Source: Candidatus Kerfeldbacteria bacterium (GTDB taxonomy: Bacteria; Patescibacteriota; Patescibacteriia; SBBC01; CAIJZX01). Taken from it: 64,000 bases of DNA. Numbering within the stretch: position 1 is the first letter of the stretch; each line of letters starts with the position of its first letter. Shown piece by piece: positions 5,947 to 46,479 of the stretch. The notes beneath the pieces are model-generated. The model ran no database searches. It saw only the letters and a list, made by a program, of their open reading frames with translations, and was not told the DNA's origin. The stretch lies in NCBI GenBank assembly GCA_963731735.1, contig CAVSWO010000002.1, positions 692,257-756,256 of the forward strand. The letters are read 5' to 3'. The position numbers and the translations under genes were made by a program.

Positions 5947-5965
5947 AATATCGGCCGGTCGTGAT

Positions 5966-6037
5966 GGGGGCGTAGTGAAATGGCTATCACAACGGTCTCC
6001 AAAACCGTTATTCAAGGTTCGAATCCTTGCGCCCCTG
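5966..6037 (+). tRNA. tRNA-Trp (anticodon CCA); CCA end encoded at 6038-6040
   Basis: Acceptor gggggcg/cgcccct with G1-U72, anticodon loop ctCCAaa, T-arm caagg-ttcgaat-ccttg. Classic position after rpmG. Confidence 0.8.
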
Positions 6038-22418: not shown

Positions 22419-22667
22419 CGGGGTGTGGCACAGTTTCCCGACGGAAGTCGGGATAAAGTCCGCGCTCAACCTGTCCCGCAAAACTCGATTTTTTTCTGCC
22501 ACCGTGGGCGGGGTGTGGCGCAGTTGGTAGCGCGCATCGTTCGGGACGATGAGGCCGTGGGTTCAAGTCCCGCCACCCCGACCACGGTGGCAAAAGAAAA
22601 CATAGACGTGTTTGATGCGGGATTCGGGACGATGAGGCCGTGGGTTCAAGTCATATTAACCCGACCA
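22419..22667 (+). repeat. partial tRNA-Pro copies flanking the intact gene: 15-nt 5' fragment (22419-22433, 1 mismatch) and a 3' fragment from anticodon loop to T-loop (22623-22652) plus shared cccgacca (22660-22667)
   Basis: Read directly. The 3' fragment diverges only in the T-stem 3' strand (atattaa versus ccgccac). Confidence 0.65.
22509..22581 (+). tRNA. tRNA-Pro (anticodon CGG); CCA encoded at 22582-22584
   Basis: Acceptor cggggtg/caccccg, anticodon loop ttCGGga, T-arm gtggg-ttcaagt-cccgc. The leader gccaccg pairs with the trailer cggtggc. Confidence 0.8.
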
Positions 22668-26045: not shown

Positions 26046-26912
26046 ATGCCAGAACTGCCTGAAGTCGAAACTATCACCCGCGAGCTGCAGCGCGTCCTGC
26101 CGGGACGGAAAATCCGGCAGGTGACGGTCGGCTTGCCGAAGATTGTTCAACTGCCGCTCGCCAAGTTTCGGAAGCAGCTGCTCGGCGCCCGCATTCGTCG
26201 AGTTCATCGCCGGGCGAAATTAGTGTTGATCGCGTTGTCGAACGGGCAGACGATAATCATCCATTTGAAAATGTCTGGCCAGCTAATCTGGCAAGACTCG
26301 AAAGATCATCAAGTTGTCGGCGGTCATCCAATTCCGGGTGGAACGCTCAACCTTCCGAATCGGTACAGCCACGTGATTCTGCAGCTGCGCGGCGGGACGC
26401 TCTTTTTTAACGATCAGCGGCAATTCGGATTCGTGCGCCTGGTACCGACCCGGGAGCTTGAAGCCTGGCTCGAAGCGCATGGGTACGGACCGGAGCCGTT
26501 AGCAGATGATTTTACCTTGGTGCTCTTCCTGCAGATACTCAAACGGCACCGCGCCAAGCGCATCAAACCGACGCTGATGGATCAAACGGTGATTGCCGGC
26601 ATCGGAAACATTTATGCCGATGAAGCGTGTCATTTCGCCAAAATCCGACCGAGTCGGAGGATCGGCAGCTTATCGGTTCGTGAACGCCGCGCACTCTGGC
26701 AGGGGATTCGTCATGTCCTGCGGCTTTCCATCAAACACCACGGCACATCATCGTCGGACTACCGCCGATCGAACGGACAGCAGGGGAGTATGAACAAATT
26801 TCTGCGCGTCTACGGACGGACGGGGTTGCCGTGTCGTCGGTGTGGACACCTGATCGTGAAAACCGTGCTGGCCCAGCGCGGGACGCACTACTGTCCGCAC
26901 TGTCAGCGCTAG
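26046..26912 (+). CDS. mutM: formamidopyrimidine-DNA glycosylase
   Basis: MPELPEVETI N-terminus (catalytic P2, E3), H2TH region, C-terminal zinc finger CRRCG...CPHCQ. Confidence 0.95.
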   Translation: MPELPEVETITRELQRVLPGRKIRQVTVGLPKIVQLPLAKFRKQLLGARIRRVHRRAKLVLIALSNGQTIIIHLKMSGQLIWQDSKDHQVVGGHPIPGGTLNLPNRYSHVILQLRGGTLFFNDQRQFGFVRLVPTRELEAWLEAHGYGPEPLADDFTLVLFLQILKRHRAKRIKPTLMDQTVIAGIGNIYADEACHFAKIRPSRRIGSLSVRERRALWQGIRHVLRLSIKHHGTSSSDYRRSNGQQGSMNKFLRVYGRTGLPCRRCGHLIVKTVLAQRGTHYCPHCQR

Positions 26913-27352
26913 AACCAGCGGTCCGGTAACCAGTACCACAGGCCCCAGGCCAGGACGAAGCCAATAATGCCGCCGACCAGGGCTTGGAGCGGCGTATGGC
27001 CGATCCGTTCGATCATCTTCGGCTGGTCTTTCAGATCGCTGGGGTGTTCACGCAGGAGGACATTCAGGACTTTGCCGTGCTGGCCGAGAAAACGCCGCAA
27101 CCCGATAGCGTCCCGGATTATCAGCAGCGAGAATATGAATGAAATTGCAAACGCGGGAGACCGCCATCCTTCCGACAGGCCAATCGCGGTTGTCAGGGAA
27201 ACCACAAAGGCGGTGTGGGCGGAGGGCATGCCGCCGTACTCCCGGATCGAGGTCCAGGTAAATTCTCCTTTGACGCCTTCTATGATAAACTTAATCAGTT
27301 GGGCTGAAATCCCGGCAATCAGTGAAATAATGACGAGTTTAGGAATATCCAT
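26909..27352 (-). CDS. divergent PAP2 (DUF212/PF02681) family membrane protein
   Basis: YGGMPSAHTAFVVSL motif and four TM helices. Confidence 0.75.
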   Translation of the reverse strand: MDIPKLVIISLIAGISAQLIKFIIEGVKGEFTWTSIREYGGMPSAHTAFVVSLTTAIGLSEGWRSPAFAISFIFSLLIIRDAIGLRRFLGQHGKVLNVLLREHPSDLKDQPKMIERIGHTPLQALVGGIIGFVLAWGLWYWLPDRWF

Positions 27353-28156
27353 ATGATCACAGAATATATTTGGGCGGTAGTTTTCGGCGCGGTCCAGGGC
27401 CTGACCGAATTTTTACCAATTTCGAGTTCGGGTCATTTAGTAATCCTCCACAGTATAGCAGATTTTTCGTTTGGAGACGCCTTGGCTTTCGATGTGGCCC
27501 TGCATGTCGGGACATTGGTGGCGGTCGTGTGGTATTTTCGGCAGGATATTAGCCGCTTATTCCGAGGCTGGATCCGGACCTTCCAAGGTACCGTGGATGC
27601 CTCGGGGAAGCTTGCTTGGTATATTCTGATGGCCACGGTTCCGGCGGCCATTTTAGGGTATTTGCTCGAATCCACCTTTGAAGAGAAGTTTCGCCGGCCG
27701 GAATTGGTCGGGATTGTATTGGCGCTGGGTGGTATCGCGCTCTGGGCGGCTGATCGCTGGTCGACTTCGCGTCGATCAATAGAACAGGGCGGCTGGGTCA
27801 GCGCTTTGAGCATCGGATTTGGTCAGGCCCTGGCCCTGATTCCCGGTGTTTCACGTTCGGGTGCGACCATCATGGTAGCGCGACTCTTTGGGTTTACCCG
27901 GGATGCGGCGGCTCGCTTTTCTTTTTTGCTGTCGATTCCCATTATCGCCGGCGCCGGTCTGAAAAAAGCCTTGGATGTGCAGGCCGCAACCATTGATTGG
28001 GGTCCATTTGCGGTCGGGATGATCGCTTCAGGTATCGTCGGCTATTGGGCGATTGGTTTTCTGCTGCGTCTTGTCCAGCGCCGGACTTACACGGGATTTG
28101 CGATTTACCGCTTGATCATTGGCGCCCTGGTTTTCGCGCTGTGGTACGGACGATAA
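27353..28156 (+). CDS. uppP: undecaprenyl-diphosphatase
   Basis: GLTEFLPISSSGHLVIL and PGVSRSGATI motifs. Eight TM helices. Confidence 0.95.
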   Translation: MITEYIWAVVFGAVQGLTEFLPISSSGHLVILHSIADFSFGDALAFDVALHVGTLVAVVWYFRQDISRLFRGWIRTFQGTVDASGKLAWYILMATVPAAILGYLLESTFEEKFRRPELVGIVLALGGIALWAADRWSTSRRSIEQGGWVSALSIGFGQALALIPGVSRSGATIMVARLFGFTRDAAARFSFLLSIPIIAGAGLKKALDVQAATIDWGPFAVGMIASGIVGYWAIGFLLRLVQRRTYTGFAIYRLIIGALVFALWYGR

Positions 28157-28159
28157 CAA

Positions 28160-28185
28160 ACAACCCGCCGAAGCGGGCTGTTTGC
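28160..28185. terminator. bidirectional intrinsic terminator between convergent uppP and the surface-protein operon (cccgc-cgaa-gcggg, T-rich on both strands)
   Basis: Hairpin at 28164-28177 with ctgtttg downstream on the plus strand and ttgtttgtta downstream on the minus strand. Confidence 0.55.
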
Positions 28186-28196: not shown

Positions 28197-29233
28197 TTAG
28201 GATGACTGCGTCGGTGGCGGCGGTGTCGGCAGTTGCCGTAAGGCCAAGACACTCAAGCCGAGGGTGACCAGGGCCAAAACCCAATCCCACCAGAGCAGCT
28301 GTTCGCAACCGGTTGCGCGGTGGACGATAATTAAGGCGATTGCCCCGCCCAGGCCAACGATGGCCGGCCAAATTTTGGTAATCGGAACCAGGGCGTAGAG
28401 AATCGCGACGCCAATCAAGAAGACGATCATAATCACGACCCATAACCAGGTGGCCAAGGTAGTGCAGGCTTCGGTCGACTCTTCGGACATCGAGTTCGCC
28501 GCATTGGTATTACTGGTGTTCAGATTGGTGACCGCATTGGTATTGTCGTTGGCATTGGTGTTGCCATTGGAATTGGAGCTGGCGCTGGTGTTACTCGAGT
28601 TAGTGTCAGTCGCGCCATTCGTATTTGCCGTTTCCCCAACCGGGACTTCTTTGACGACCACGGCGACTTGTCCGGTGATCGATCCGACGGTCGCTTGGAC
28701 TTTCCCGGTCCCGACATTCGTAGCCGTGAAGGTCCCGTCAGCGGCGATCGTTCCGATCTCGCCAATCACTGACCACGTCGGCGTGAAACCGGTAACTTCA
28801 TTGCTTTGCGCGTCAAAACCGCGAGCGGTAAATTTTCGAGCGCTGCCCTGATTAATTAACTCAGGATCCGTGTTCGGGTTGATGGAAAGCTCTTTGAGCG
28901 CACCGGCCGTAACCATGACAGTGGCATCCGCTGTCAGGCTTTCAAAGCTGGCCTGAACTTTCCAGGCTCCGGTTTGACCGGCGAAATATGTCGCACCGGT
29001 CATGCTGCCCAGGGGATCATTGCTGGAAATAAAAGCGGCGCTGGTCACGTCCGTCGTGTTTCCGTCTTTGTCCTTGGCGGTGACCACGAAGGTTTGGTTC
29101 TGGTCCGACGTCAAATGTACGGACGCTGGACTAATCGTCAGCGAAGTGGCCGGTCCGGCGGCCTGAGTGGATGACGCGAGGAGCCCGCCGAACAAGAGTG
29201 CTCCCAGGGTCAGAATTTGTGCAACATGTCGCA
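28197..29233 (-). CDS. cell-surface protein: signal peptide, two Big_2 (bacterial Ig-like) domains, Asn/Thr/Ser-rich low-complexity linker, C-terminal triple-TM anchor
   Basis: Signal peptide MRHVAQILTLGALLFGGLLASSTQAAG; Ig-like repeats (..SVHLTSDQNQTFVVTAKDKDGN..); TNGATDTNSSNTSASSNSNGNTNANDNTNA linker; three hydrophobic helices. The track start 29273 is a TTG; the ATG at 29233 is used here. Confidence 0.6.
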
Positions 29234-29244
29234 TAGCGAATAGG

Positions 29245-29901
29245 TTACGATATAAGATCTCCGAAAAGGACAAGTCGTTGTTTGGTTGAAAAGAGTGGTG
29301 TACAGGTGAAAATCGTCAATTTCGGTTCGGGCGTATTTTGGAGTATATCGACCCGGTCCGGGCTGACAATCTCGCGCCCAGTGATTTTGTAAATGTATTC
29401 TTGGCCCTGCCAGTAGATAATGGCCGGTTGGCCGTTTTCAACCTTATCCAGAAGATACAGGGTCGTGCTGCTGGGTGGCAAGTATTGCCAACGATGGCCA
29501 GACAGTACGATATTACCACCTTTGGTCGGATCCGATGTATTGGGGATGTGCCAGATACCACCTAAGTCAAGCACCTTCTGCGTCGGTCCTTCCAGAATCG
29601 GCATATCGACGCCAATGCTTGGAATCAACAGGCGATTATCTTTTGGCAGCGGTTTATTCTCAACTACCGGTAATTTTGGAAAGGCGGACAGGGAGAGCCC
29701 GCTGTCGTTGACCGTGGTTTGATAGGGCAGGATCGGGGCCGGTTTGAGGAGTGCGTACCGGAGAGCCGGGATAAAGGGGTAGAGTATGACACCCAGGCCT
29801 AGCAGGACGCCCAGAATGGCGACACCGAGCCAAATCCGCCCCGTCGCACGTGAGCGACGGGGCGGTTGGGAAGCTTGTGTCTTAGGCGGAAATTCCGTCA
29901 T
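29245..29901 (-). CDS. sortase (class E-like transpeptidase)
   Basis: N-terminal signal-anchor, His motif GNIVLSGHR, catalytic TLxTC motif LTIFTCTPLFS, and Arg in RLVLFG. Confidence 0.85.
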   Translation of the reverse strand: MTEFPPKTQASQPPRRSRATGRIWLGVAILGVLLGLGVILYPFIPALRYALLKPAPILPYQTTVNDSGLSLSAFPKLPVVENKPLPKDNRLLIPSIGVDMPILEGPTQKVLDLGGIWHIPNTSDPTKGGNIVLSGHRWQYLPPSSTTLYLLDKVENGQPAIIYWQGQEYIYKITGREIVSPDRVDILQNTPEPKLTIFTCTPLFSTKQRLVLFGDLIS

Positions 29902-32900
29902 CTCGGCGACGCAGGCGACCGATCGCGTAGAGGGCCAGGCCCAAGGTCGTCAATCCCATCAAGAAGATCAGATAATCGCGGAGACCGACGCCGGTCGTGG
30001 CCAAGCCCAGCACCCGCGGGACGCGGACTTCGAGGTCGGCTTGAGCGACCAACGGATCGCTGCCATCAGCGGTCAGCACGGCGGTGTTTTGGTAAACACC
30101 AGCTTTGACATCTTTGCTGACCAAGACTTCGTAGTTCATGACCCGTTCGTGGTTCGCTTTGAGCGTACCAATGTTGAAGGTCTTCGTTCGTTCGCCACCT
30201 TCCACGAAGGTCAGGCCTTCCGGTAAGGTATCAGTAACGACCACGTTGGTTGCGTCGGCATTGCCGGAGTTGCGGATCGTCACCGTGTAGACCACGATCT
30301 TGCCCGGATTGGTGATTTTCGGATCAACCGATTTTTCGATTGACAGATCAATTTCCGGAGTCGCACCGAGCACTTGCGGGACGCGGACTTCAACGTTCGA
30401 ATCATCCGTGACTTGCGAGTGGTTATCTGCGTTCGCGTCGGCTACGTTCGTGTAGGTGCCGGCTGCCTGGGTGGCGCTGATAGACGCGTCATAGGTCACC
30501 GTAAAGGTCGCACCCGGCGCCAAATCACCGGCGTTCCAGGTAATCACCTGGCCGACCACCGAGGCCGGAGCGATGCTGGCTGAACCGGTCACGAAGCTGA
30601 AGCCGCTTGGCAGCGTATCAGTGACAATCACATGGTAAGCACTGTCGGTTGCGGCGGCGTCGTTGGTGACGACCAGGGAGTAGGTCACGCTCTTACCCGG
30701 GTTGGTGAAGCCTGAGACGCTGTTGGTCTTGACGATCGAAAGCGTCGGGGCGGATTCAACCGTGGTAGTGGTGGTGTCGTCATCGCAGTGTTCCACAACT
30801 TCTTCCTCGGTTCGAGTAAACGACTGGCCACAAACCGTACCGGTGTTCACCAATTGGGTGCCGTTCTGCAGCGGCGCAGCCGCCACGTCAACCACGAAGG
30901 TAACCGTGCCGGTATCGCCCGGAGTATGGGGGCCCAGATCCCAGGTTACGGTATTCGTGTTGGCATCGTAGGTGCCGCCGTTGTCGGCGCTGACGAATGT
31001 TTCGTTGGCCGGCAGCGGGTCGGTAATAATCAGCGAATCAATCGGCGCGTTGCCACTGGTCGCCCAGTCCAGAGTGTAGGTGAATTGGGCGCCTGGCGTG
31101 GTGGTGGCCGGAGCTGACTTGTCGATGCTAACCGTGAAGTCCGAGTGGACTTTCGTCGTAATCGTATCACAGTCGTGCTGTTGCGCGTCGGCGTCGATAC
31201 AGGCGGTATTTTCGATTGAAGTTCCGTCGGCTAACGGTGAGTCAACCGTGACTTGGTAGGAAACCGTTCCGGTATCGCCGGCTTGGCGGTTACCGAGGTT
31301 CCAGCTCAGGTCGTTGGTGGTATCATCCGGCGTACAGTTTGCTGTGGCATCGCAGGAAATGCTGGCCGGGACGTACGATGTCAGCAACGGAATTGTATCG
31401 GAGATGATCGCATTATCGACGTAGCCATCGCCGGTAATTTCCCAGGTCAAGGTGTAGTCCAGAACGCCACCAGCTTCAACCGGATCCGGGTTGGCAGCCT
31501 TGGTGATGTTCACGCCAGCCTGTTTGTCATTATTCGTAATGACGCAAGCTTTGACGTCACCGGCTTTCAGGCTGATGTTGCCCTTCGTATCACAGTCACC
31601 GCTAATTGTTCCGGCGTAGTTGCTGTCACCGGTCTCGCTGACGACATAATCACCGGCATTGAATCCGTTCTGATCACCGCTGTTGACGGTCGTCGTGTCA
31701 ACGAAGAGCGGGAAATCAGACACCTGCTTGGTACCGCCGTTGTCATTGATGACAATCTTGGTAACCGTCAGGCGGGGTTGGATATCATCGTTCGTAATCG
31801 TGCAGGTAACATCTTCACCTTCATCTAAGGTCATGGTTCCATTGAGGACATCCGGGCACTTGGCATCGCCGGTAATGTCAACGAAGTTGTAATCGCTGCG
31901 ACCAGCTTCGTTCAAGGCGATCGGGGTGTTGGCATCAACGGGAACTGTTTGTCCGGAGTTCACCGCCTTCCCATCGACCGTCAGACCGAAGTCATTCGGA
32001 CCGGCGGTACCGCCGTTGTCGTTAATGACCACTTTATTCAACGTTACGGTTGGGGCAATGTCATCGTTCACAATCGTACAGCTAATGTGTTGGCCTTCGT
32101 CCAAGGTAACCGTACCGTTCAAGACATCCGGGCATTCTTTATCACCCGTGATTTCTTTGAAGGTATATCCGCTCAGACCCGCTTCATTCAAGGCGATCGG
32201 GGTGTTGGAATTCACGTCCAGTGTTTGGCCGGAAGTAACCGGCGTCCCACCAATCGTCAAACCGAAGTCATTCGGAACAGCATCACCGCCGTTGTCATTG
32301 ATGACATCCTTGGTCAGTGTGATCGACGGGGTGATATCGGTGTTGGTAATGACGCAGGTGTGCTGGCCATCTTTGGTAACAGTAATAGTGTTAGTGGCTT
32401 GGCCATCACATTGTATACCGACCTGAGAGTATCCAGCGATCAGATCTTCACTGACGTTATACGTACCGGTTGGTAAGTCGAAATCAGTCCCAGTTTGACT
32501 CCCGGCAAACGGGGAAACAATATTATTTCCACTCTGCTTGACGTATAGCGTGAAGTTGCTGGCGAGGGCGTTACCGCCATGATTGTTATTGACCTGTTTG
32601 ATGACAGTCAGGTGACCAGTATCACGGGTGTTCGTTACCACACATGTATGCGAACCGGTGGTGACGTGCACATAGCCTGGAGCTGGGAAGCTGACAATCG
32701 GGTCCGAAGGAGTTCCAAGACTGCAAGCTCCGGACATGTTGGTCAGAGTGTATCCATCCGGTCCATCGTACTCACGCAATGAATAATCACCCACCGGCAG
32801 GATGGTGGTATCACCGGAAGTCATGCCGCTTGTTCCCCCCGCTTGGAATCGCCAATCAAGCGGATCGGCATTTCCGCCGACCACCTGTTTGATGATGGTG

Positions 32901-35803
32901 ATCTGGCCCATATCACGCTCATTGATAATGGTACAGGTACCGCCCTTGGCCGTGACATTCATGGTGATGGTACCGGTTTGCGCGTCATAGCTACAAATAC
33001 CGGAGGCACCATAGATATGATAATCGGTTACCGCGTTTTCCGTAACGGTATAGGTACCAGTGTCGAAGGTGTTCGAGTCGCCGTTTTGGTAGTCACCATT
33101 ACCATCCACCGCAAAGTGGAAGGCACTCAGGTCCGCCGCGGGGAAGTTTCGAACGATTTTCTCGAACGTGACTTGACCTGTTTGGCGGGTGTTGGTGAAG
33201 ACACAGACAACATCTTGGTCTTTTGCAACATGAACTTCGCCCGTCAGCTGATTCACGGAGACTGGACCGCTATTGTCGGAACAAACTAAGGATGAATCAT
33301 AATTCGTTAAGCCACCGGTCTCAGAGACGAAGTAGTCCCCGGTATCAACCGGGATTTTTCCGGTGGTATCATTTTTTCCGACCACATCGTAGCTGGTAAC
33401 CTGGTCACCATTTTCACTGGTTCCGATCTGCAACGTTGTGGATCCAGCGGTACCGCTCCAGACTTTTTGTAATTCAATAGTGCCCTGATCCCGAACATTG
33501 GTAAAGGTGCAGGTTGTAGTCGTATCTTTCACAACCGTGGCCGTTGAAGGGTTGGCATCGGTACAATTCGCTCCGGAAACCGAGCTGAAGGTGTAATCGA
33601 TTGGTTCAGCTTCTTGAACCGTGTAATCACCTGTGTTCAGTCCGGGAACGGAGATTTCACCGTTTGCATCGGTGGTGTACTCAGTGCCATCGATGGTGAA
33701 TTTTACTCCTTCCATTCGGTTCTGATCCTGGTCGAGTTTAATAACCTTCAGATCGCCCGTGTCTCGGGAAAGGGAGTTATTGGTCGTTACCGTAACACTT
33801 GAACCATCTCCGGCCGGAATGGTAACCGAAGCGGAGGGAGAGAATGTGGGGGTTCCGAAAGTGTACCCTTGAGGTGCTGTCGGAAGATTGGGTTCACTAA
33901 CTGTGCAAGAAGTTCCGGTTGGAATTCCGCTTACAGTTTGTGAAGCGCCGGCCGCCACGGAGACGTCACCAATGAAACTCGTGCCGCATTCATAGTGAAG
34001 ACTGAACGGTCCAGTGTATCCGTTCGGTCCGCCCGTGAGAGCCTTTTCCAGTTTCAGAGATCCGGTATCGCGGGTGTTGGTGAACGAGCATGTCAGCCCC
34101 TTTTCTGTCAGGGAAACTTGGGCCGATTCAACCGCTCCCAAACTCTGCCCATCGCAAGTCAAGTCGGTGACATGGTAACCCGGTTGCTGATCTTCATTGA
34201 TCGTGTAGGTTCCGGTGTCGAGCGTTTGGCTGGTGCCGGTCGCGGTGTTTTGTGGACCTCCTTGAACGTCCCAGGTCCAGTTGGTAGCGTTCGTAATATC
34301 AACTTTACCGTCGCCATCCGTATCAACATTTTTGAGCACTAACAAGTCGCCCGTATTGCGGGTGTTAGTGAAAGTACAGGTGCCGCCCTTCGTCGTAACG
34401 TCAAGCGTTGCTGTTTGGCCTTTCAAGTAGTCACAGATACCAGTGGCGCTGGTCGACGTATAGCCACTCGGTCCAGATTCAGTCACCTGATATTGTCCGG
34501 GAGCTAAATTCACCGTATCGCCGTCATGGAAGATTCCATTGACGCCATCAATCGTAAAGTCCCAATCACTCGGTTGGGCGGTTCCGCCGACCACGATTTT
34601 TTCGAAGGTGACCGTGCCGAGATCTTGGGCGTTGTGAATTTCACAAGATTGGTCCAGGGTGTCGGCTGAGGAACCACTGATAGCCAGGTTTGAGCACGTG
34701 CTGGAAACCTGATGGTATCCGCTAATCTGTGATTCAGAAACTGCGTAGGTGCCAACCGGCAGATGATCAAAGACAACCGTGTCGGTTCCTGGAGCAGGGG
34801 AGATCGGACCGGTTCCGGCCGGATCTGGCGAGATGGTGAATGACCACTGGTCAGGCGTGGCGTTACCCGAGTCGACGATTTTGGTAACGGTTACGCTGCC
34901 GAGCAGAACTGCACCTGGTTGGATTGAGCGGTCTTGGTTCTTATTTCCGCTGTTGTCCAGTTGTTGGGTTCGCATGTGGAATGGCGAACCTGAAATACTG
35001 GCCGCGCCTTTTCCGGCGCCGTGGTCGATGGATGAAGCTAAATGGCCACCCCAAGCGATCAATACTTGGTCGACGCCAGCGCCAACGGTGAAACTCAGCT
35101 CAATGTCTTTGGTGCTGTTACCAGTTAGCGGGCCGCTCAGTGCGTATGTTCCAAGGCTGGCGGAAGACGCGCCATAGACCAAAACGGCTTGGGTATTCGA
35201 CTGGAAGCCTGAATTAGCCGGGTCAACGGGAATAGCAGCACTGGCTGGTGTCGTAGCACAGGTCGTGCTAAAACCCGTTAGACTGTCACACACGTCTGGA
35301 TTTTCAGTCTGGTTCCAATTGGCTAGATAATCGTATGAATAAATACCACCTGAGGTGAAATCATAGTTCAGGTGGATGGTGTGGGTGCCAGCCGACAGGC
35401 CAGTCACCGACAATCGGAACGGCACAACCTCGCCCTCGACATAATGCGAGTTGTTCGAGTTAAGGTTTCCATTTTGCCACTCGGCCGTTCCTGGAGGGGT
35501 CAGTTTGCCGTTGGCATACTGGTCCAGGTTGACGTTGCTGTTGGTGGTGGCAGCGTGAGCAGCCGGAACGCTCCAAGCGCCCACGTAGCTCAAATTAGCT
35601 ACCATAACCAGGCCCACAATAAGATTGAGGCCTTTCCACAGTCGTTCCTTGAACGACTTCTTTTTGATGAAGGTGATTTGCATAGGTCGTCGACTACCTA
35701 ATGAGTAAAAAGTTTCGTGATGTTGGTCTCTTTGTACAAAAAAACCAACAGAAAGCTTAATTACGAAACGTTGCAACGTACCACCACACGACAAAAATGT
35801 CAA
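29882..35803 (-). CDS. giant (1973 aa) repeat-rich cell-wall-anchored adhesin with LAxTG sorting signal
   Basis: Signal peptide. Many prealbumin/Cna-B-like modules (TFEKIVVGG, LKLEKALTGG, TIELQKVWSG). Three 90-aa tandem repeats, DUF11-like modules, and a C-terminal LATTG followed by a hydrophobic helix and an RLRRRDD tail. Confidence 0.85.
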   Translation of the reverse strand: MTFLSCGGTLQRFVIKLSVGFFVQRDQHHETFYSLGSRRPMQITFIKKKSFKERLWKGLNLIVGLVMVANLSYVGAWSVPAAHAATTNSNVNLDQYANGKLTPPGTAEWQNGNLNSNNSHYVEGEVVPFRLSVTGLSAGTHTIHLNYDFTSGGIYSYDYLANWNQTENPDVCDSLTGFSTTCATTPASAAIPVDPANSGFQSNTQAVLVYGASSASLGTYALSGPLTGNSTKDIELSFTVGAGVDQVLIAWGGHLASSIDHGAGKGAASISGSPFHMRTQQLDNSGNKNQDRSIQPGAVLLGSVTVTKIVDSGNATPDQWSFTISPDPAGTGPISPAPGTDTVVFDHLPVGTYAVSESQISGYHQVSSTCSNLAISGSSADTLDQSCEIHNAQDLGTVTFEKIVVGGTAQPSDWDFTIDGVNGIFHDGDTVNLAPGQYQVTESGPSGYTSTSATGICDYLKGQTATLDVTTKGGTCTFTNTRNTGDLLVLKNVDTDGDGKVDITNATNWTWDVQGGPQNTATGTSQTLDTGTYTINEDQQPGYHVTDLTCDGQSLGAVESAQVSLTEKGLTCSFTNTRDTGSLKLEKALTGGPNGYTGPFSLHYECGTSFIGDVSVAAGASQTVSGIPTGTSCTVSEPNLPTAPQGYTFGTPTFSPSASVTIPAGDGSSVTVTTNNSLSRDTGDLKVIKLDQDQNRMEGVKFTIDGTEYTTDANGEISVPGLNTGDYTVQEAEPIDYTFSSVSGANCTDANPSTATVVKDTTTTCTFTNVRDQGTIELQKVWSGTAGSTTLQIGTSENGDQVTSYDVVGKNDTTGKIPVDTGDYFVSETGGLTNYDSSLVCSDNSGPVSVNQLTGEVHVAKDQDVVCVFTNTRQTGQVTFEKIVRNFPAADLSAFHFAVDGNGDYQNGDSNTFDTGTYTVTENAVTDYHIYGASGICSYDAQTGTITMNVTAKGGTCTIINERDMGQITIIKQVVGGNADPLDWRFQAGGTSGMTSGDTTILPVGDYSLREYDGPDGYTLTNMSGACSLGTPSDPIVSFPAPGYVHVTTGSHTCVVTNTRDTGHLTVIKQVNNNHGGNALASNFTLYVKQSGNNIVSPFAGSQTGTDFDLPTGTYNVSEDLIAGYSQVGIQCDGQATNTITVTKDGQHTCVITNTDITPSITLTKDVINDNGGDAVPNDFGLTIGGTPVTSGQTLDVNSNTPIALNEAGLSGYTFKEITGDKECPDVLNGTVTLDEGQHISCTIVNDDIAPTVTLNKVVINDNGGTAGPNDFGLTVDGKAVNSGQTVPVDANTPIALNEAGRSDYNFVDITGDAKCPDVLNGTMTLDEGEDVTCTITNDDIQPRLTVTKIVINDNGGTKQVSDFPLFVDTTTVNSGDQNGFNAGDYVVSETGDSNYAGTISGDCDTKGNISLKAGDVKACVITNNDKQAGVNITKAANPDPVEAGGVLDYTLTWEITGDGYVDNAIISDTIPLLTSYVPASISCDATANCTPDDTTNDLSWNLGNRQAGDTGTVSYQVTVDSPLADGTSIENTACIDADAQQHDCDTITTKVHSDFTVSIDKSAPATTTPGAQFTYTLDWATSGNAPIDSLIITDPLPANETFVSADNGGTYDANTNTVTWDLGPHTPGDTGTVTFVVDVAAAPLQNGTQLVNTGTVCGQSFTRTEEEVVEHCDDDTTTTTVESAPTLSIVKTNSVSGFTNPGKSVTYSLVVTNDAAATDSAYHVIVTDTLPSGFSFVTGSASIAPASVVGQVITWNAGDLAPGATFTVTYDASISATQAAGTYTNVADANADNHSQVTDDSNVEVRVPQVLGATPEIDLSIEKSVDPKITNPGKIVVYTVTIRNSGNADATNVVVTDTLPEGLTFVEGGERTKTFNIGTLKANHERVMNYEVLVSKDVKAGVYQNTAVLTADGSDPLVAQADLEVRVPRVLGLATTGVGLRDYLIFLMGLTTLGLALYAIGRLRRRDDGISA
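31690..32490. repeat. three tandem copies of roughly 270 nt inside the adhesin gene, encoding the repeat VINDNGG..NDFGLT..G..V.SGQT..V..NTPIALNEAG.S.Y.F..ITGD..CPDVLNGT.TLDEG....CTI.NDDI.P
   Basis: Protein-level repeats are visible in the translation. Antisense ORFs also show repeated peptides (PPLSLMT...FTIVQ). Confidence 0.6.
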
Positions 35804-36045
35804 GTGGCATCTCGCTAAAACGTTAAGAATTATGACCTTTTGTTGGATTTTTCGTTTTTATCCTGGGAAAGGGCGATATTCGGAATGTACGAAACCTGGA
35901 AAAATGAGCGATACAAACAGAGAAAATCGAGTGTATATTCCACGATTCCTCCAATATTTGTCAAGTAAAAATCTACCTGACAATATAGCGATTGTACACG
36001 AAAAACGAGGCTTCGTACAAACCCCATTTTTGTTGGTTTTTGCCT
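35735..36045 (-). promoter_or_regulatory. AT-rich (about 38% GC) 5' region of the adhesin operon carrying at least five copies of a GTAC[AG]AAAC-like motif
   Basis: Copies at about 35744, 35763, 35888, 35994 and 36016. The two outermost copies are in inverted orientation. Confidence 0.35.
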
Positions 36046-36049
36046 ACTA

Positions 36050-37102
36050 TTAGAGACCTGTGGATAACTCTATGGGCTTGGGTTGGAGTGATGGTCGAAC
36101 TGGAACTGTCGCCGGGATATTTTTTCGGAGGGTACCGAATAAGACAATGATCAGGAAATCGGCCAGGAACACCGCCAACATAAGCCAAGGCAAATCATGT
36201 TTGAGGGTAAAGTCTGACTGGGTGAGGGGAGATGGGGACTGTGTTGAAGCCCCTTTGACCCGGGGTGAGAAATTTGGAGCCGTTAGATAGTCCGGATTTG
36301 GCTCTGTTAAGCTAAAAGTCAGGTTTGGAGCCGGACGATTCGCGTCAGAAACCAAGCTATGAATCATCGGTTCCGTTGGTACTGAGGTTAGAGCGGGAGG
36401 CGTAGGTTCGGGGGCGGCATGGTTGGTGGATGCAACCGGTACGCCTCGATTCCCGAATAATTGGACCACCACCGTTGAGGTCTGTCCCTCGATGATGCCG
36501 GTCGCTACGCCGACGCCGATATCGGTGTATTTGCTGGCCATAATATTGTCGCGATGAATCGGTGAGGCCATCCAACCCTGGAGTAAACCCGAAACATCAC
36601 TAAAATCCTTCGCCAAATTCTCGCCGGCTTCGGTAAAGGCATAGCCAACCCGATCAAACCAATACCAAGGACTTAACCCAGACGGTGAGGTGTGAGCAAA
36701 ATAGCCGTGGGTGGCCATATCATCGGCTTTCATTTGGGCGGCACGCTGAAGACGGTTATCGGGCGAGAGGACCGGCACACCGGCTGTTTGCCGAACTTGG
36801 TTTGTGGCCTGAATAACATCGGTGGCGTTGAAGGCCAGGGTTGGTAGCGGTAGGAGCAGGAATCCAGCCAGCAACACCGCCATAAAATTCCGGACCCCGG
36901 TTGGGAGCGTCGATGCAGTTTTGTCTGATGCAATGTCTGCAGTATTGATTGGCGGCAGAGATTGGACCACAAAGACACTCTGTCCATCGCGGACAGTGAT
37001 CGTAACTTCACCGGTCGGTCGGTGCACGAATTGTTTTGTTCGATGGCCGGGGAGCCAATCGGGGAATAGATGCATAGGGTGGAGTCGAAACGCGAGCGTC
37101 AT
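36050..37102 (-). CDS. CAP (SCP/PR-1-like) domain secreted or membrane-anchored protein
   Basis: CAP core (..ATNQVRQTAGVPVLSPDNRLQRAAQMKADDMATHGYFAHTSP...GENLA....LQGWMASPIHRDNI....TDIGVG) preceded by an N-terminal hydrophobic helix. Start is either GTG 37138 or ATG 37102. Confidence 0.7.
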   Translation of the reverse strand: MTLAFRLHPMHLFPDWLPGHRTKQFVHRPTGEVTITVRDGQSVFVVQSLPPINTADIASDKTASTLPTGVRNFMAVLLAGFLLLPLPTLAFNATDVIQATNQVRQTAGVPVLSPDNRLQRAAQMKADDMATHGYFAHTSPSGLSPWYWFDRVGYAFTEAGENLAKDFSDVSGLLQGWMASPIHRDNIMASKYTDIGVGVATGIIEGQTSTVVVQLFGNRGVPVASTNHAAPEPTPPALTSVPTEPMIHSLVSDANRPAPNLTFSLTEPNPDYLTAPNFSPRVKGASTQSPSPLTQSDFTLKHDLPWLMLAVFLADFLIIVLFGTLRKNIPATVPVRPSLQPKPIELSTGL

Positions 37103-37111
37103 GCAGAAAGC

Positions 37112-37134
37112 AAAAAACGCGCTCGCGAAGCGCG
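37112..37134 (-). terminator. terminator-like hairpin plus T6 on the minus strand (ggcgcgc-ttcgcga-gcgcg tttttt), 10 nt upstream of the CAP ATG at 37102
   Basis: Read directly. It lies inside the ORF if GTG 37138 is the start; otherwise it is a 5'-UTR attenuator-like element. Confidence 0.3.
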
Positions 37135-37259
37135 CCACCTGTACCTATACGTAGTATAGCATAGTCGGCCGGAAAAATCAAGTTGGCGAGCAACTTTGGA
37201 CCCGTATGCAATCGACTTGCTTTCTCGGCAAAAACAGGAGACAATAGGTCTTCGAGACT

Positions 37260-38380: not shown

Positions 38381-39403
38381 ATGCGCATTGTGCAATTTTC
38401 ACTCCTCGGTCTGTTGGTGCTGGTGCTCGGGTTTGGCTGGTGGTATCACGGAGTGGTATCGCACGCGCCGGATCAGGCACCGGCCCGCTCGGTGATTCGA
38501 ATCGCTGAAGGCGACGGGGTGCGCGAAGTTGCCGATAAACTTTACGATGCCAAGCTGATAAGTCAACGCTGGCACTGGAATCTCTATGTGGTGTTAACCG
38601 GCCATCGCTCAGACCTGCTGGCCGGTGAATACGTCTTCACCACCGCGCCGTCGATTCGCACCCTGGTCCGTGAATTTACCACACCACCGGAAGGCCAACC
38701 CGAAGTCAGCGTAAAAATACTTGAAGGCTGGACCGCCAAAGATATGTCGACCGTCTTGGAAAAATCCGGCGTGATCGATGCCAAAGACTTTCTGGCGATG
38801 GTAGATACGCCTGACTATGCCGCCATGATTCCGAAAGCAACCTATCCATGGCTGGCCACCATTCCGCAGGGGGCAAGCTTGGAAGGTTTTCTGTTTCCGG
38901 ATACCTATAAATTCTTTGTCCCGTCCACTCCCGGCCAGGTGGTTGGGAAAATGCTGGCCAACTTCGATCAAAAATATTCCAGTAGCCTGCGTACATCGTT
39001 AACCGATTCCGGTCGCTCACTTTATCAGGCGGTAATTTTAGCTTCGATTGTCGAGCGAGAATTGCAATCCGATAGTGATCGGGCGAAAGGGGCAGATTTG
39101 TTTTTGCGACGGATTGCAGCCGGGATCCCGCTGCAATCAGATGCGACGGTCAATTATGTGACCGGCAAAAGCGCCACTCAACCCACCTTGGATGACTTGG
39201 CCGTCGACTCACCCTATAACACCTATAAGTATCAGGGACTGCCGCCCGGGCCGATCGGAAACCCCGGATTATCGTCCTTACGAGCCGCCATTAACCCCGA
39301 GCCCAACCCGTATTATTACTTCTTGCATGACCCCCAGGGCGTCACGCATTTCTCCAAAACCCTGGAGGAACATAATGCCAATAAAGCCAAGTATTTGCCG
39401 TAG
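38381..39403 (+). CDS. mltG: endolytic murein transglycosylase (YceG-like)
   Basis: N-terminal TM helix, YceG domain with catalytic-region pattern ..LQSDATVNY.. and ..PYNTYKYQGLPPGPI... Confidence 0.85.
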   Translation: MRIVQFSLLGLLVLVLGFGWWYHGVVSHAPDQAPARSVIRIAEGDGVREVADKLYDAKLISQRWHWNLYVVLTGHRSDLLAGEYVFTTAPSIRTLVREFTTPPEGQPEVSVKILEGWTAKDMSTVLEKSGVIDAKDFLAMVDTPDYAAMIPKATYPWLATIPQGASLEGFLFPDTYKFFVPSTPGQVVGKMLANFDQKYSSSLRTSLTDSGRSLYQAVILASIVERELQSDSDRAKGADLFLRRIAAGIPLQSDATVNYVTGKSATQPTLDDLAVDSPYNTYKYQGLPPGPIGNPGLSSLRAAINPEPNPYYYFLHDPQGVTHFSKTLEEHNANKAKYLP

Positions 39404-40571: not shown

Positions 40572-42791
40572 TTACGGTAAGCTGACTGAATAGAGACTGG
40601 TACCGGCCAAAACGTAGGCGGTCTTGTTTGCCTCGTCAACGGAAAAGTCTCGTAGGGTGGTCCAGGTGGGCGACTGAAATTGGGCGAGTAATTTGCCTTC
40701 CTTCGTAAAGACCAGCAGCCGTTGGGAAGCCGGTTCAAGCACATACAGATACGTACTATTTTCATCGGTCCAAAGTTTGGTTGGTTGAGTCAGTGCCGGA
40801 TCAACCGTATCCAGGGCGAAGGTGGCCGGCCGCCCACCAAATAATTTTTCAATCCGACCGTCACGGTGCAGTACATAAATTGATCCATCGACGGCCAAAT
40901 CAATACCGTCACGAAGATCAAGGCTGACGGTTTGCCAATTGCTGCCGGCCCCCAAGCTGGTAGCACTGCGGCTAAAACGCAGGATCGATTGATTGGCCGT
41001 GTCCAAGGCATACAGACGGGATTGGAAATTCGCAATCGCGACTAGCGTGGGATTTTGCTTCGGCAATTGGGCATCCAACGGCGTCCAGGTTTTCTTGGCT
41101 GGGTTGAATGCGACAACGGTATCGCGTTCCGTCAGAAATAAAATGTCTTGTCCGGAAACAGTCCCGGCCACCAACGCTCCGGTATCGAGTGAATTAGTAC
41201 TGGAGGTGGTATCACTGGGCGTAGTGGCGCTAGCAATCACCGCGGTTGCTCGCCGGTCATCGACCACGATAAATTTACCATTGAGGAAAAACGTTTCGGT
41301 GGGGCTAAGCTCAGGATATTCAGCGGCAATATTCAGGACTGGACTCGGATCAGTCAGAGTCGTCAACTTGGTGAGCTGCTGGGTAACTTTGGCCAGGTGA
41401 GCGGCCAAGGGTTTACGGGTAGCCTTATCTTGTTTGGTCCGGTCAGGGAGTTGATCAAATAATTTTTGGGCGGCCGCCAGATGTTGCTTGGCCAGATCAT
41501 CCCCGCCGAAAAGCAAGGCCGCATCGGCTTGCCCTAAGCGCTCTTCGATTTGTGCCACCGTGGCTTCGACGTTAGCGGTTTGCTGGCTTGGCAGCAAACC
41601 GCCCGTCCGCGCGAGGGAAGTGCTGAAAAATAGTACCACCGCCAGCATGCCGATCACGCTCCAGCGCTGCGAAGGCGCTAGTCGTCGAAACCAGCGAACC
41701 AGCGAATCCAAAGCGGCGCTTATCCCAAAGCGACGTGGGGCACGAAGAGACGGTGCAGAAATCTGCAGCGATTGTGGCTTTGGCATCGGGAAGGCTTGCC
41801 GCATGCGTTGCCAGGCGTTGGTCAAACGGCCGGTACCGGTTCCCGCTGACGGTCGGGCGGCTGGTTGCGGGGCCAACGGTTGATCAGGAATCGAACGGCG
41901 TGGTGGTCGGCGGGAGGCTTGACGGACAAGACTGGACAGGCGTAGTTTCAGTCGCGAGCCGAACTGATGGATGGAGGGCCAGACCGAGGGTGATAATATA
42001 CTTTCGGTCCGTTGTTCCTGACTCCGGAGTTGATCCATCGACAATTGCGGTGAGATTCGATTGGACGGCAGGGTCGAAGTCGGCAGTGGATGCGACGCTG
42101 CCACCGGATCTTCCTCCGGCATCAACTGCATCAGGAGGGCCGCGAAAGCCACCCGAGCTTCGGTGCCGAGCAGCGTGGTTTCTAATTCGCGGGCGGCTTG
42201 GGCTGGCGGGTAATCAAGCACCGTCCGCCGTAACTTTTCCATCGAGAAATAGTCGAGCAATGCCGGGGTACAAAAAAGTAGCCGATCACCAGCCTCAAGG
42301 CGTCCGCTAATCACTTGATCAAATAACCGGAGCGGGTTGGCTTTCTGACCGGATGGTTGCCCGAGGATGTCGTGGAGCCGTTCGCGCCGAACAAGAAATC
42401 CATGCATCGTACCCAGGCAAGAAAGATACAGCTGCTCTCGCCATTGGACTCCAATCACCATGTGGGCGTGGTCCACCCACTGGCCAACTCCCTGTAATAT
42501 CAATTGATGCAAGCGTTGATTGGTGCGTTGGAGCGCCACTTCAAAAGTGGCCTCAACATTTTCATCATGGCCTTGATAGTATTGATGCTTCAATTCCTCC
42601 TGGAGCACATTCAGCACCTCGTGATTGCTGCGACTTTTGGTATCAATCCCGCTGACCAAAAAAAGTGTTCCCAGCTGTTGTTCTTCGCTGGGGGTTGGGT
42701 GCGCAACCCAAACGTTGACGGTCGAGGCGGACCGATCAGGGTCATAGACAATCAGGGAGTCGAGCTGGTGCTTAAGAGTCATCGTAGGCAA
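40572..42791 (-). CDS. membrane protein: N-terminal degenerate PP2C/SpoIIE-like domain, Pro-rich linker, one TM helix, C-terminal beta-propeller-like repeat domain
   Basis: N-terminal region follows the PPM fold pattern (..MVIGVQW...G..H..LV.....D...........L...GDRLLFCTPALL..) but lacks the metal-binding DG motifs. The C-terminus has repeated YALD/YVLH/YVLE beta-strand motifs. Confidence 0.35.
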   Translation of the reverse strand: MPTMTLKHQLDSLIVYDPDRSASTVNVWVAHPTPSEEQQLGTLFLVSGIDTKSRSNHEVLNVLQEELKHQYYQGHDENVEATFEVALQRTNQRLHQLILQGVGQWVDHAHMVIGVQWREQLYLSCLGTMHGFLVRRERLHDILGQPSGQKANPLRLFDQVISGRLEAGDRLLFCTPALLDYFSMEKLRRTVLDYPPAQAARELETTLLGTEARVAFAALLMQLMPEEDPVAASHPLPTSTLPSNRISPQLSMDQLRSQEQRTESILSPSVWPSIHQFGSRLKLRLSSLVRQASRRPPRRSIPDQPLAPQPAARPSAGTGTGRLTNAWQRMRQAFPMPKPQSLQISAPSLRAPRRFGISAALDSLVRWFRRLAPSQRWSVIGMLAVVLFFSTSLARTGGLLPSQQTANVEATVAQIEERLGQADAALLFGGDDLAKQHLAAAQKLFDQLPDRTKQDKATRKPLAAHLAKVTQQLTKLTTLTDPSPVLNIAAEYPELSPTETFFLNGKFIVVDDRRATAVIASATTPSDTTSSTNSLDTGALVAGTVSGQDILFLTERDTVVAFNPAKKTWTPLDAQLPKQNPTLVAIANFQSRLYALDTANQSILRFSRSATSLGAGSNWQTVSLDLRDGIDLAVDGSIYVLHRDGRIEKLFGGRPATFALDTVDPALTQPTKLWTDENSTYLYVLEPASQRLLVFTKEGKLLAQFQSPTWTTLRDFSVDEANKTAYVLAGTSLYSVSLP

Positions 42792-45201: not shown

Positions 45202-46413
45202 TTAGCGTTGCTGTTCCTTCAGATGACCCCAGGCAGTCAGTACCATAGCTCCTAATGCCCAAACCGTTAGACCGAGCCGGATCAGGCCGAAGAGACCGGC
45301 CAGGATTGCGGGGGTGCCGCGAAAAACCAGGCCAAAGGCAAAGTCGAAGACAACCGACAGCAATACAATCCCGAGCAAGGTGGCCCAGATAATAACGGAC
45401 TTCCGTTGCCCGGGGAATGCCACACCGCGTCGGATCCAATGCAGCACCAACCAGCCCAGCCAAAAGCCGAGCGCGACCTGGGTCAGGTACAGGGTAATGG
45501 CGTAGATACCGGCCAACACTAACGCTAACTGCAGACCAACCAGAGTAATCATGAGCATGGCCAGGGCGGCCGGAATGACCAAGAAGAATAAAACGCCAAA
45601 GCCGAGCGTGGCGCCGAACCGAGTGGTCATATGATGATGTACATTGCGAAGCGTTTTGGGGAAGAACAGGCTGAACAGCAAGCCGACCAAAATCATCGAT
45701 AGCAAGCTCCAGAGGCGGATGCCCTGTAGGAAGGCCTGCCAGGATTTCGTGGAGACGACGACTTCAACCGCGTGTTTCTGCACACCGCCAGCAATCACTG
45801 CCTGGTCGGAGACGGTCGCAGTTTGCGAAGCCCAGTAGTTGAGTGCACCGTCGAGTTGGGCAGACGAGCCGACCACCACACACACGCTCCGGCCACAATC
45901 ATTTCCGGTGTGCAAATTTACATCCGCTTGGCTGTGCCCGTTGACGATAAACGATCCGCCCCAGGCAGTAACCGCGCCGACGGTCGTGCCGTTCAAGGTG
46001 ACCGTTCCGCCGAACAGCATCGTCTCGCCGGTTATCAGGCTGTCGGTATCAAGGGTCAGGCTGCCGCCGAAAATCATGAGATTGCCGCCAACTGATCCGC
46101 TGATATCAATCGTTCCGCCGCCGGCGTGCAGATTGCCATTGACGGTGCCGGAAACACGAATGGTACCGCCGCTTGCAAATACATCCCCGTCAATCGTTCC
46201 GCTGATGGTGACCGTTCCACCGGCGATGTACACATCATTTTGATACGTGCCGGCCAGATCAACCGTGCCGCCACCCACCATGTACACATCGGAAACGGTT
46301 TGATCGGATCCGGAAAATACCGAATCGCCGTGCTTGGTGGTGAGCGCCTGGGAAGCGCTCGGAATAGCCAAAAGCAATACCCCAACCAGGCTGGTGAGAA
46401 TGAAGTTTCGCAT
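45202..46413 (-). CDS. membrane protein with N-terminal bactofilin/CcmA-like beta-helical repeat domain and C-terminal polytopic TM domain
   Basis: Signal-like MRNFILTSLVGVLLLAIPSASQA. GT[IV]x[IV]xG-type repeats (GTVTISGTIDGDVFASGGTIRVSGTVNGNL...). At least six hydrophobic helices. The track start 46545 would overlap rmlC; the ATG at 46413 is used. Confidence 0.4.
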   Translation of the reverse strand: MRNFILTSLVGVLLLAIPSASQALTTKHGDSVFSGSDQTVSDVYMVGGGTVDLAGTYQNDVYIAGGTVTISGTIDGDVFASGGTIRVSGTVNGNLHAGGGTIDISGSVGGNLMIFGGSLTLDTDSLITGETMLFGGTVTLNGTTVGAVTAWGGSFIVNGHSQADVNLHTGNDCGRSVCVVVGSSAQLDGALNYWASQTATVSDQAVIAGGVQKHAVEVVVSTKSWQAFLQGIRLWSLLSMILVGLLFSLFFPKTLRNVHHHMTTRFGATLGFGVLFFLVIPAALAMLMITLVGLQLALVLAGIYAITLYLTQVALGFWLGWLVLHWIRRGVAFPGQRKSVIIWATLLGIVLLSVVFDFAFGLVFRGTPAILAGLFGLIRLGLTVWALGAMVLTAWGHLKEQQR

Positions 46414-46479
46414 ACGCGTAACGATTAATGATTGGTTCAAGTATAGCAAAAAGGCCATAAACATGCCATCATACGAGCG

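Follow-up and report, generated by a model that had tools for sequence, protein, structure and literature searches.

A probable sortase-dependent surface-display module in a Candidatus Kerfeldbacteria genome and its recurrent CAP and Ig-like membrane partners

A sortase locus with two additional membrane proteins

A 64-kb stretch of contig CAVSWO010000002.1 (assembly GCA_963731735.1) from a Candidatus Kerfeldbacteria bacterium, hereafter the window, carries four minus-strand open reading frames (ORFs) between positions 28197 and 37138. In the direction of that strand, these ORFs code for a membrane protein with a CAP domain, a giant protein ending in an LATTG sorting signal, a sortase and a membrane protein with immunoglobulin (Ig)-like domains, here termed Ig-TM. 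The evidence gathered from the window and from the 10-kb flanks of related loci indicates that the locus is probably a sortase-dependent surface-display module of this organism in which Ig-TM and the CAP protein act as partners of the sortase. The sortase/adhesin core is ordinary in kind, while the recurrent association of sortase, CAP protein and Ig-TM in the Patescibacteria appears to be new. A preliminary description, made from the letters alone, had already listed the four genes, proposed an adhesin/sortase module in a small-genome organism and called the pairing of the LAxTG adhesin with the Ig-like membrane protein and the CAP protein uncharacterised. All four ORFs are present in the ORF list, the organism belongs to the Candidate Phyla Radiation (CPR), and neither a link between sortases and CAP proteins nor the association of both with Ig-TM, which recurs in two gene orders, was found described in the literature searched.

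A large part of bacterial diversity belongs to the CPR or Patescibacteria, whose cultivated members live attached to other microbes. To our knowledge, the means of attachment have been identified in only a few Saccharibacteria, mainly in the form of type IV pili, and we know of no description so far of the proteins displayed by CPR sortases or of the helpers of these enzymes. Sortases as such are already known in more than half of CPR genomes (PMC6744442).

The giant substrate

Matches to Pfam families in the giant ORF comprise SpaA_2 (seven stretches, E=1.3e-47), DUF11 (PF01345; four stretches, E=1.2e-39, 135.6 bits against a cut-off of 24.6), DUF5979, SpaA and DUF7927, together with four stretches matching the NCBIfam DUF11 repeat model TIGR01451. 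Scanned segment by segment, the protein resolves into approximately 11 CnaB/SpaA-type modules (residues ~301-1430) and four DUF11 domains (~1431-1920; E=1.9e-19 to 1.9e-27 per segment), the latter corresponding to the CLIPPER domain described previously (PMC12617251). Many of the CnaB-type modules display a lysine in the first strand, an E-box-like GxYxVxE...Y sequence and a C-x-[FIVH]-x-N motif in the last strand, with 11 C-x-x-x-N motifs, nine E-boxes and eight lysines counted overall. This is the arrangement of isopeptide-forming CnaB domains, and it suggests that such bonds may form within the modules.

The C-terminus of the protein reads ...VLGLATTG-VGLRDYLIFLMGLTTLGLALYAIG-RLRRRDDGISA, as had been proposed before, with LATTG at 29990-30004 followed by a hydrophobic helix and the basic RLRRRDD tail. 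The protein thereby combines the N-terminal signal peptide and the succession of motif, hydrophobic helix and basic tail of LPXTG-type surface proteins, and a pattern scan of the ORFs of the window identified it as the sole carrier of a sorting signal. The signal peptide and the repeated modules recognised in the preliminary description are likewise present, but the length of 1973 aa given there probably does not hold. The most likely start is the ATG at 35683 (codon 41 of the listed ORF, 120 nt inside its TTG start), yielding 1933 aa, because the conserved signal peptide of the relatives begins at that point. This signal peptide carries the motif ERxWKxLNxxVG...LNxS or, more fully, K/R-E-R-x-W-K-x-L-N-x-x-V-G-x-x-T-x-L-N-V-S. 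The same motif is found at the N-termini of the large substrates of loci L001, L003, L004, L007, L009 and L011-L014, despite their differing heads, and is reminiscent of the YSIRK-type signal peptides of Firmicutes surface proteins.

Between signal peptide and stalk lies a head domain (residues 85-300) that returned no match in Pfam or, by phmmer, in the PDB. Its AlphaFold2 (AF2) model is all-beta and of moderate confidence (mean predicted local distance difference test, pLDDT, 68.7; predicted template modelling score 0.73), and Foldseek recovered no fold relative for it (best E=3.6e-3). The domain does have 734 homologs at about 45% identity, mostly Chloroflexota surface proteins of approximately 360 aa, at whose end a Pro-rich linker is followed by a helix and an Arg-rich tail of their own. 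It is thus nearest to proteins of the Chloroflexota, not to other Patescibacteria proteins, a kinship that suggests either an interphylum domain exchange or a widespread surface domain yet to be classified.

Heads vary across the family, from the beta-sandwich of the window protein to VWA domains in its relatives. The best-conserved part is the CLIPPER region with the anchor (40-52% identity), and the succession of VLGLATTG, transmembrane helix and basic tail is kept in all close loci. A head that changes while the base of the stalk and the anchor stay is the pattern of an adhesin with a changing target. In its general plan, with signal peptide, N-terminal head, tandem stalk of isopeptide-fold domains and sorting signal, the protein resembles the fibrillar adhesins with CnaB/CnaA (CLIPPER/DUF11) stalks (PMC12617251), from which it differs in its unclassified head, its CPR host and its own conserved signal-peptide motif.

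A sortase of class E habit outside the curated classes

The assignment of the adjacent gene to the sortases is well supported by Pfam (PF04203, E=1.5e-24, 86.6 bits against a cut-off of 26.6) and by TIGR01076 (59.6 against 39.35). The catalytic motifs noted earlier are likewise borne out, since His136, Cys200 (in LTIFTC) and Arg209 are invariant in 19 homologs and align with the catalytic residues of SrtE1. The protein consists of an N-terminal membrane anchor (residues ~19-48), a conserved linker of the form YPFxPxxxYAxxKPxPxxPY and the catalytic domain. All of its 117 homologs belong to the Patescibacteria, and those that bear a name are from Candidatus Kerfeldbacteria.

The class of the enzyme is less straightforward. 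Class E sortases have been described as using the motif LAxTG (PMC5148588). All close loci encode LATTG, LAATG or LAETG beside the sortase, and LAxTG accompanies the clade of the window enzyme in more than 25 loci. The CPR clade also has more distant members, and these adjoin LPETG substrates. The window sortase also shares with SrtE1 and SrtE2 of Streptomyces coelicolor and SrtA of Actinomyces oris the N-terminal anchor, the His-Cys-Arg catalytic domain and neighbours with LAxTG, helix and basic tail (PMC5148588), and its close homologs are labelled class E sortase by NCBI's annotation pipeline (PGAP). Its score with the class E model NF033747 (68.1 bits) is nonetheless far below the cut-off of 160, as are those with the class C model NF033745 (71.2 bits against 160) and with class D (60 bits), the NCBIfam cut-offs ranging from 140 to 165. 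Moreover, its beta6/beta7 loop is shorter than that of SrtE1, and SrtE1 Tyr229, proposed to serve the specificity for alanine at P3 (PMC5148588), aligns with Ile119 in the beta3/beta4 loop (GGIWHIP), adjoining the invariant Trp117 and His118; the class E tyrosine is absent, with the alignment of this loop possibly one residue off. The best PDB match is a class C enzyme (1.9e-14), followed by SrtE1 (5.5e-12) and the Bacillus enzyme 2kw8 (5.8e-12). Hence, of the earlier proposal of a class E sortase, the LAxTG neighbour motif stands and the membership does not: by its genomic associations the enzyme appears class E-like, but by curated criteria it falls outside class E.

The same results bear on whether the locus might encode a sortase-assembled pilus, in which the sortase would polymerise the giant protein (or several pilins in the relatives) with Ig-TM as the membrane base. 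Matches to SpaA-type and RrgB-like isopeptide domains would fit such a pilus, as would the first rank of class C among the NCBIfam scores and PDB matches, and in L004, L014 and L016 a set of two large substrates and one small one (216-227 aa, LAATG/LAETG) resembles tip, shaft and base. The class C score, however, is far under its cut-off, and the sortase has neither a DP[FWY] lid motif nor a C-terminal membrane helix, its only hydrophobic segment being that at residues 19-48, which argues against class C. Furthermore, no YPK pilin motif is found in the giant protein, which is the single substrate in the window and, at 1933 aa, far exceeds known pilins. Taken together, these data make a pilus quite improbable. 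Pam pili, described in a 2026 preprint as a novel CPR pilus system, were also considered and set aside, since their assembly proceeds by donor-strand exchange and has nothing to do with sortases.

A side observation concerns the segment GGIWHIPNTS (residues 114-123; 29533-29562, minus strand), which was compared across the sortases of L001-L101. The residue following the invariant tryptophan is His or Ala beside LAxTG substrates and Arg in nine of the ten loci with LPxTG, when kinship among loci is ignored; L025, L038, L071, L018 and L041 are exceptions to the pattern. The apparent covariation of this residue with the substrate motif may be regarded as a lead.

Ig-TM, a membrane protein encoded next to the sortase

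The protein encoded after the sortase begins with a signal peptide, followed by a pair of Big_2-like Ig domains (nt 28650-29150), a disordered stalk rich in Asn, Thr and Ser (28467-28634) and a membrane domain of three helices (28197-28466). The Ig-like fold, stalk and triple transmembrane segment of the preliminary description all agree with these results, but its attribution to Big_2 finds no counterpart in Pfam, where the listed ORF (28197-29273) yields weak matches only (Big-like, 16.7 bits; cut-off 27) and none to PF02368 at E<=0.01; one homolog (P0128) has PF02368 on record. The fold itself is supported by three lines of evidence. A phmmer search of the PDB matched the Ig region to teneurin-like proteins (1.6e-11) and to LigA (1e-3), an AF2 model built with 21 homologs shows two beta-sandwiches (pLDDT >95), a disordered stalk (residues 201-256) and helices at 262-282, 289-307 and 315-333, and the top Foldseek match is to the Big_2 domains of LigA (8gyr, 8e-15).

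The membrane domain is the more distinctive part of the protein. It contains an invariant WWxW motif and two invariant cysteines, one before helix 1 and the other in the loop between helices 2 and 3, both predicted to be exoplasmic because the Ig domains lie outside the cell. Among 1.84 billion proteins, a profile of this domain found only 12 representatives, each of them forming the end of a protein of approximately 330-355 aa. Homologs in a more distant clade, which the profile missed at library-wide significance, were recognised by locus-level hidden Markov models (HMMs; 25-34 bits) together with the shared motifs, and even there both cysteines and WW[PAD]W are kept.

The position of the gene invites comparison with that of SafA, the closest functional analogy. 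In the Actinobacteria, the gene for this membrane protein of 52 aa comes right after that of a class E sortase, whose anchor SafA binds and shields from signal peptidase (PMC9282373). The Ig-TM gene, too, directly follows an LAxTG-type sortase gene and is conserved with it, and in both proteins a membrane helix has an aromatic, Trp-containing motif on its exoplasmic side (FPW in SafA, WW[PAD]W in Ig-TM). The gene 10 nt downstream of the window sortase is, however, not the small safA gene common in the Actinobacteria but one for 345 aa. SafA has a single helix and bears PGP and FPW motifs; Ig-TM lacks both motifs, and a signal peptide, two Ig domains and a stalk precede its three helices. No sequence relation was detected between the two, and the motif precedes an outside-to-inside helix in Ig-TM and follows an inside-to-outside helix in SafA. 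Homology with SafA was discarded on the grounds of size, topology and motifs; the likeness is confined to position and a Trp-rich exoplasmic motif, and an antagonism of signal peptidase by Ig-TM would be hypothetical.

The CAP protein

The product of the first gene matches PF00188 (E=3.9e-19, 70.1 bits against a cut-off of 21.1), so that, with SpaA-type, DUF11 and sortase, all the families named for a check in the preliminary description other than Big_2 were recovered. It falls below the cut-offs of the YkwD-type NCBIfam model TIGR02909 (98.5 against 171) and of a second NCBIfam model (53 against 200). Of 23 aligned sequences (homologs linked to sortases and the window protein), 22-23 retain H149, E173 and H195. 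The domain (nt 36497-36811) is preceded by a hydrophobic segment at residues ~84-106, the start codon being uncertain, and followed by a Pro-rich linker and a second hydrophobic segment at ~314-339. With one such segment at each end, the CAP domain would sit outside the cell, doubly tethered to the membrane. In its His/Glu/His residues and envelope location the protein is comparable to CAP/YkwD-type proteins such as the divisome-associated lipoprotein DalA (PMC10470522), from which it differs in scoring below both NCBIfam cut-offs, in its two helical tethers and in its link to a sortase.

Conservation of the association across sortase loci

Loci around relatives of the sortase (14 genome loci, 80 metagenome loci and seven from exact look-ups) were scanned, over all their ORFs, with HMMs derived from the locus homologs and with the sorting-signal pattern. 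In the close clade the order is that of the window, with the CAP gene followed by the giant LATTG protein, an overlapping sortase and Ig-TM, and with constant flanks (YceG and a nucleotidyl (NTP) transferase on one side, BacA, DUF212 and Fpg on the other). The order substrate, sortase, Ig-TM is retained in 21 of the 23 evaluable close loci, and, in counts uncorrected for phylogeny, the Ig-TM gene comes immediately after that of the sortase in 21/23 close and 14/19 intermediate loci, while a CAP gene is found within 10 kb of the sortase in 7/11 close and 10/13 intermediate evaluable loci. In addition, at least 13 of 21 Ig-TM homologs match a sortase homolog in the size of the longest listed contig, which suggests that they share contigs.

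The intermediate clade, with sortases 39-47% identical to that of the window, presents another arrangement. In L041, L043-L048 and L089, LPETG substrates, where present, are followed by the sortase, a long CAP protein (470-530 aa) and an Ig-TM-like protein of 359-456 aa with three Ig domains, the same two cysteines and an LWWPW motif, and at one such locus the NCBI names read sortase, CAP domain-containing protein and Ig-like domain-containing protein. L005 and L018 have only the sortase and the long CAP gene. In L062, L073 and L077, where the sortases are more distant still, a CAP gene again stands next to them. Since the trio of sortase, CAP protein and Ig-TM survives a change of gene order, its linkage exceeds what inherited synteny would explain. 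The long CAP proteins (L005, 10677-12299; L018, 10957-12456; L041, L043-L048 and L089) are further marked by a cytoplasmic motif rich in His (HWFIPHEGNxHxPHALRP), two C-terminal helices and, between CAP domain and anchor, an additional domain.

Several observations weigh against a functional partnership of this kind. Besides lacking phylogenetic correction, the linkage counts include some loci that were scored as evaluable only through the presence of the gene, so that the fractions are somewhat inflated. The close loci are broadly syntenic (BacA, DUF212, Fpg, YceG), and conservation there is partly plain synteny. The CAP gene is absent upstream in L011 and L014 and was not detected in the readable 10 kb of L004, and in L005 and L032 a sortase of this family occurs without an Ig-TM gene. 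A gap of 366 nt with a hairpin and promoter-like sequence separates the CAP gene of the window from the giant gene, so that the four genes may not share a single transcript. The sequences of the CAP protein and Ig-TM give no clue to their role, and other substrates or sortases may exist in the rest of the 0.82-Mb genome, beyond the window. Some of these points favour a narrower unit of adhesin, sortase and Ig-TM, the CAP gene being an unrelated gene kept by local synteny: apart from the gap and the two loci lacking the gene upstream, the housekeeping genes on either side show equal conservation within the close clade, and CAP proteins have other known envelope roles, that of DalA being an example. 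The placement of CAP right after the sortase in the intermediate order (L005, L018, L041, L043-L048, L089), its presence by the more distant sortases and the occurrence of only one CAP gene in the whole 64-kb window render this narrower unit unlikely. The retention of accessory genes in sortase loci is not without precedent, as illustrated by SipA/LepA, a signal-peptidase-like chaperone of Gram-positive pilus loci (PMC4049620), which is also neither sortase nor substrate; it has an unrelated fold, and no evidence of a pilus is seen at the window locus.

A sortase dedicated to one giant substrate, as put forward in the preliminary description, would hold for the window, and the number of adjacent substrates varies among loci. 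The somewhat more distant loci L004, L014 and L016 have two to three, including the small protein mentioned above. Such small single-CLIPPER proteins (216-227 aa, LAATG/LAETG) lie just before the sortase in L004 (9278-9943), L014 (9288-9938), L016 (2492-3175), L038 and L040 (a sister clade), and none is found in the window. Proteins of approximately 250 aa with LAATG, encoded on the opposite strand after distant sortases in L070, L075, L080, L082 and L083 and starting with CDL..K.VSVNGG.F.DAN, may represent another small substrate family. Lastly, L097/L098 (9174-10384) harbor tandem sortase genes after an ORF ending in IPKTS.

A proposed mode of action

Sequence and comparison underlie every step of the following scheme, and this too should be counted among the points against it. 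The 1933-aa protein, with its Sec-type signal peptide, head, 11 CnaB/SpaA-type and four CLIPPER/DUF11 domains and terminal LATTG, helix and basic tail, would be exported and, by analogy with the sortase family, retained in the membrane by its tail. The membrane-anchored sortase would then cut between Thr and Gly of LATTG with Cys200, aided by His136 and Arg209, and join the cleaved protein to a peptidoglycan precursor through an amino group of the latter, an acceptor that we assume here, so that the fibre would become covalently fixed in the wall. With about 16 domains, it could reach tens of nanometres.

Peptidoglycan machinery is indeed encoded within the window (a class B penicillin-binding protein at 53075-54808, BacA and YceG), which is relevant to the idea that the adhesin is instead joined to an acceptor other than peptidoglycan, such as an amino group of Ig-TM or a lipid, with the trio acting on its own as an anchoring complex in the membrane. 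This would be in keeping with the close linkage of sortase and Ig-TM whatever the gene order, with the very narrow distribution of the Ig-TM membrane domain and with the predicted mature N-termini of Ig-TM proteins, which have a small residue after the AxA site, mostly followed by Gly-Pro. Such an acceptor is without precedent, however, the mature N-terminus is not conserved as Gly, and the sortases of L005 and L032 occur without an Ig-TM gene, all of which leaves this possibility highly improbable.

Under the preferred scheme of anchoring to the wall, Ig-TM and the CAP protein would most likely be sortase-associated factors, forming a platform in the membrane by which the sortase or its giant substrate is stabilised or positioned, a role played for class E sortases by actinobacterial SafA, which is unrelated in sequence; less likely, they would be co-displayed surface parts of the same attachment apparatus. 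Comparative genomics indicates that both belong with this sortase family, and their function is here proposed by analogy. A more specific version, which we put forward tentatively and regard as rather doubtful, is that the sortase, the doubly tethered CAP protein and Ig-TM form a Patescibacteria-specific membrane complex needed for the display of giant adhesins on host-attaching cells, with Ig-TM guiding or holding sortase or substrate through its three-helix domain and the CAP protein acting on the envelope or the substrate. Attachment to a host is itself suggested by architecture only.

Whatever the role of the partners, the locus supplies a concrete CPR sortase substrate in the form of a 1933-aa fibre with a swappable head, a sortase clade that lies outside the curated classes yet uses LAxTG or LPETG, and two partner families retained with the sortase in two gene orders, the trio being usable as a search key for attachment loci in metagenomes. 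Were the membrane complex to be real, it would be the first multi-protein sortase machinery and provide a set of markers by which attachment systems of uncultivated CPR bacteria could be traced; were the partners irrelevant, the locus would reduce to an ordinary sortase/adhesin pair.

Organisation of the locus and its surroundings

The features of the locus are listed in Table 1. The sortase ATG (29901) precedes the stop of the giant gene (29882), giving the 20-nt overlap reported in the preliminary description, and the Ig-TM gene starts at ATG 29234, 10 nt past the sortase stop instead of the 12 nt given there. With this overlap and spacing, the genes for the giant protein, the sortase and Ig-TM look translationally coupled. 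The CAP gene is located upstream on the same strand, as described, but not in immediate adjacency, and may be transcribed separately from the other three; the hairpin in the intervening gap (36001-36031) is a comparatively weak one (-13 to -15 kcal/mol, z -2.1). The hairpin proposed for the other end of the module proved real. Located at 28156-28185, it has a 13-bp stem and a UUCG loop, with folding energies of -25.8 kcal/mol (minus strand, z -6.2) and -18.9 kcal/mol (plus strand, z -3.4); a scan with promoter and terminator consensus patterns did not flag it, and folding confirmed it.

Table 1. Coordinates of the module in the window
Feature	Position	Strand	Remarks
CAP (PR-1/YkwD-like) membrane protein gene	36050..37138	-	362 aa as listed; PF00188
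Intergenic region between CAP gene and giant gene	35684..36049	-	366 nt; hairpin and U-tract at 36001-36031; TTGACA-containing promoter-like sequence
Giant fibrillar adhesin gene (putative)	29882..35683	-	1933 aa from ATG 35683 (most likely start); listed ORF from TTG 35803
Signal peptide of giant protein, MQITFIKKKSFKERLWKGLNLIVGLVMVANLSYVGAWSVPAAHA	35552..35683	-	motif common to related large substrates
Head domain of giant protein, ~216 aa	34904..35551	-	beta-sandwich by AF2; no Pfam or solved relative
Stalk part 1, 11 CnaB/SpaA-type (prealbumin-like) modules	31514..34903	-	matches to SpaA_2, SpaA, DUF5979, SpaA_4 and Cna_B
Stalk part 2, four DUF11/CLIPPER (CnaA-like) domains	30044..31513	-	matches to DUF11 and TIGR01451
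Sorting signal LATTG (29990-30004), hydrophobic helix, RLRRRDDGISA and stop	29882..30004	-	pattern read
Sortase gene, 218 aa	29245..29901	-	PF04203; His136, Cys200, Arg209
Ig-TM protein gene, 345 aa	28197..29234	-	listed ORF 28197-29273
Hairpin between convergent Ig-TM and BacA genes	28156..28185	.	candidate bidirectional terminator; by folding

Several plus-strand ORFs lie antisense to the giant gene, among them 31253-32476 (+) and several of 150-190 aa; these probably reflect the repetitive, Thr/Gly/Val-rich coding sequence of that gene and are unlikely to be genes themselves. Two other ORFs of the window, 40572-42791 (-; 739 aa) and 45202-46545 (-; 447 aa), match no Pfam family at E<=1e-5. 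The module is surrounded by envelope genes (26909-28156, 38381-39403 and 53075-54808), which code for DUF212, BacA (undecaprenyl-diphosphatase), YceG/MltG and the class B penicillin-binding protein. An Rfam scan of the window returned four tRNAs only and no match in the region of the module; three of the tRNA genes are clustered at 5382-6037 and the fourth is found at 22509-22581.

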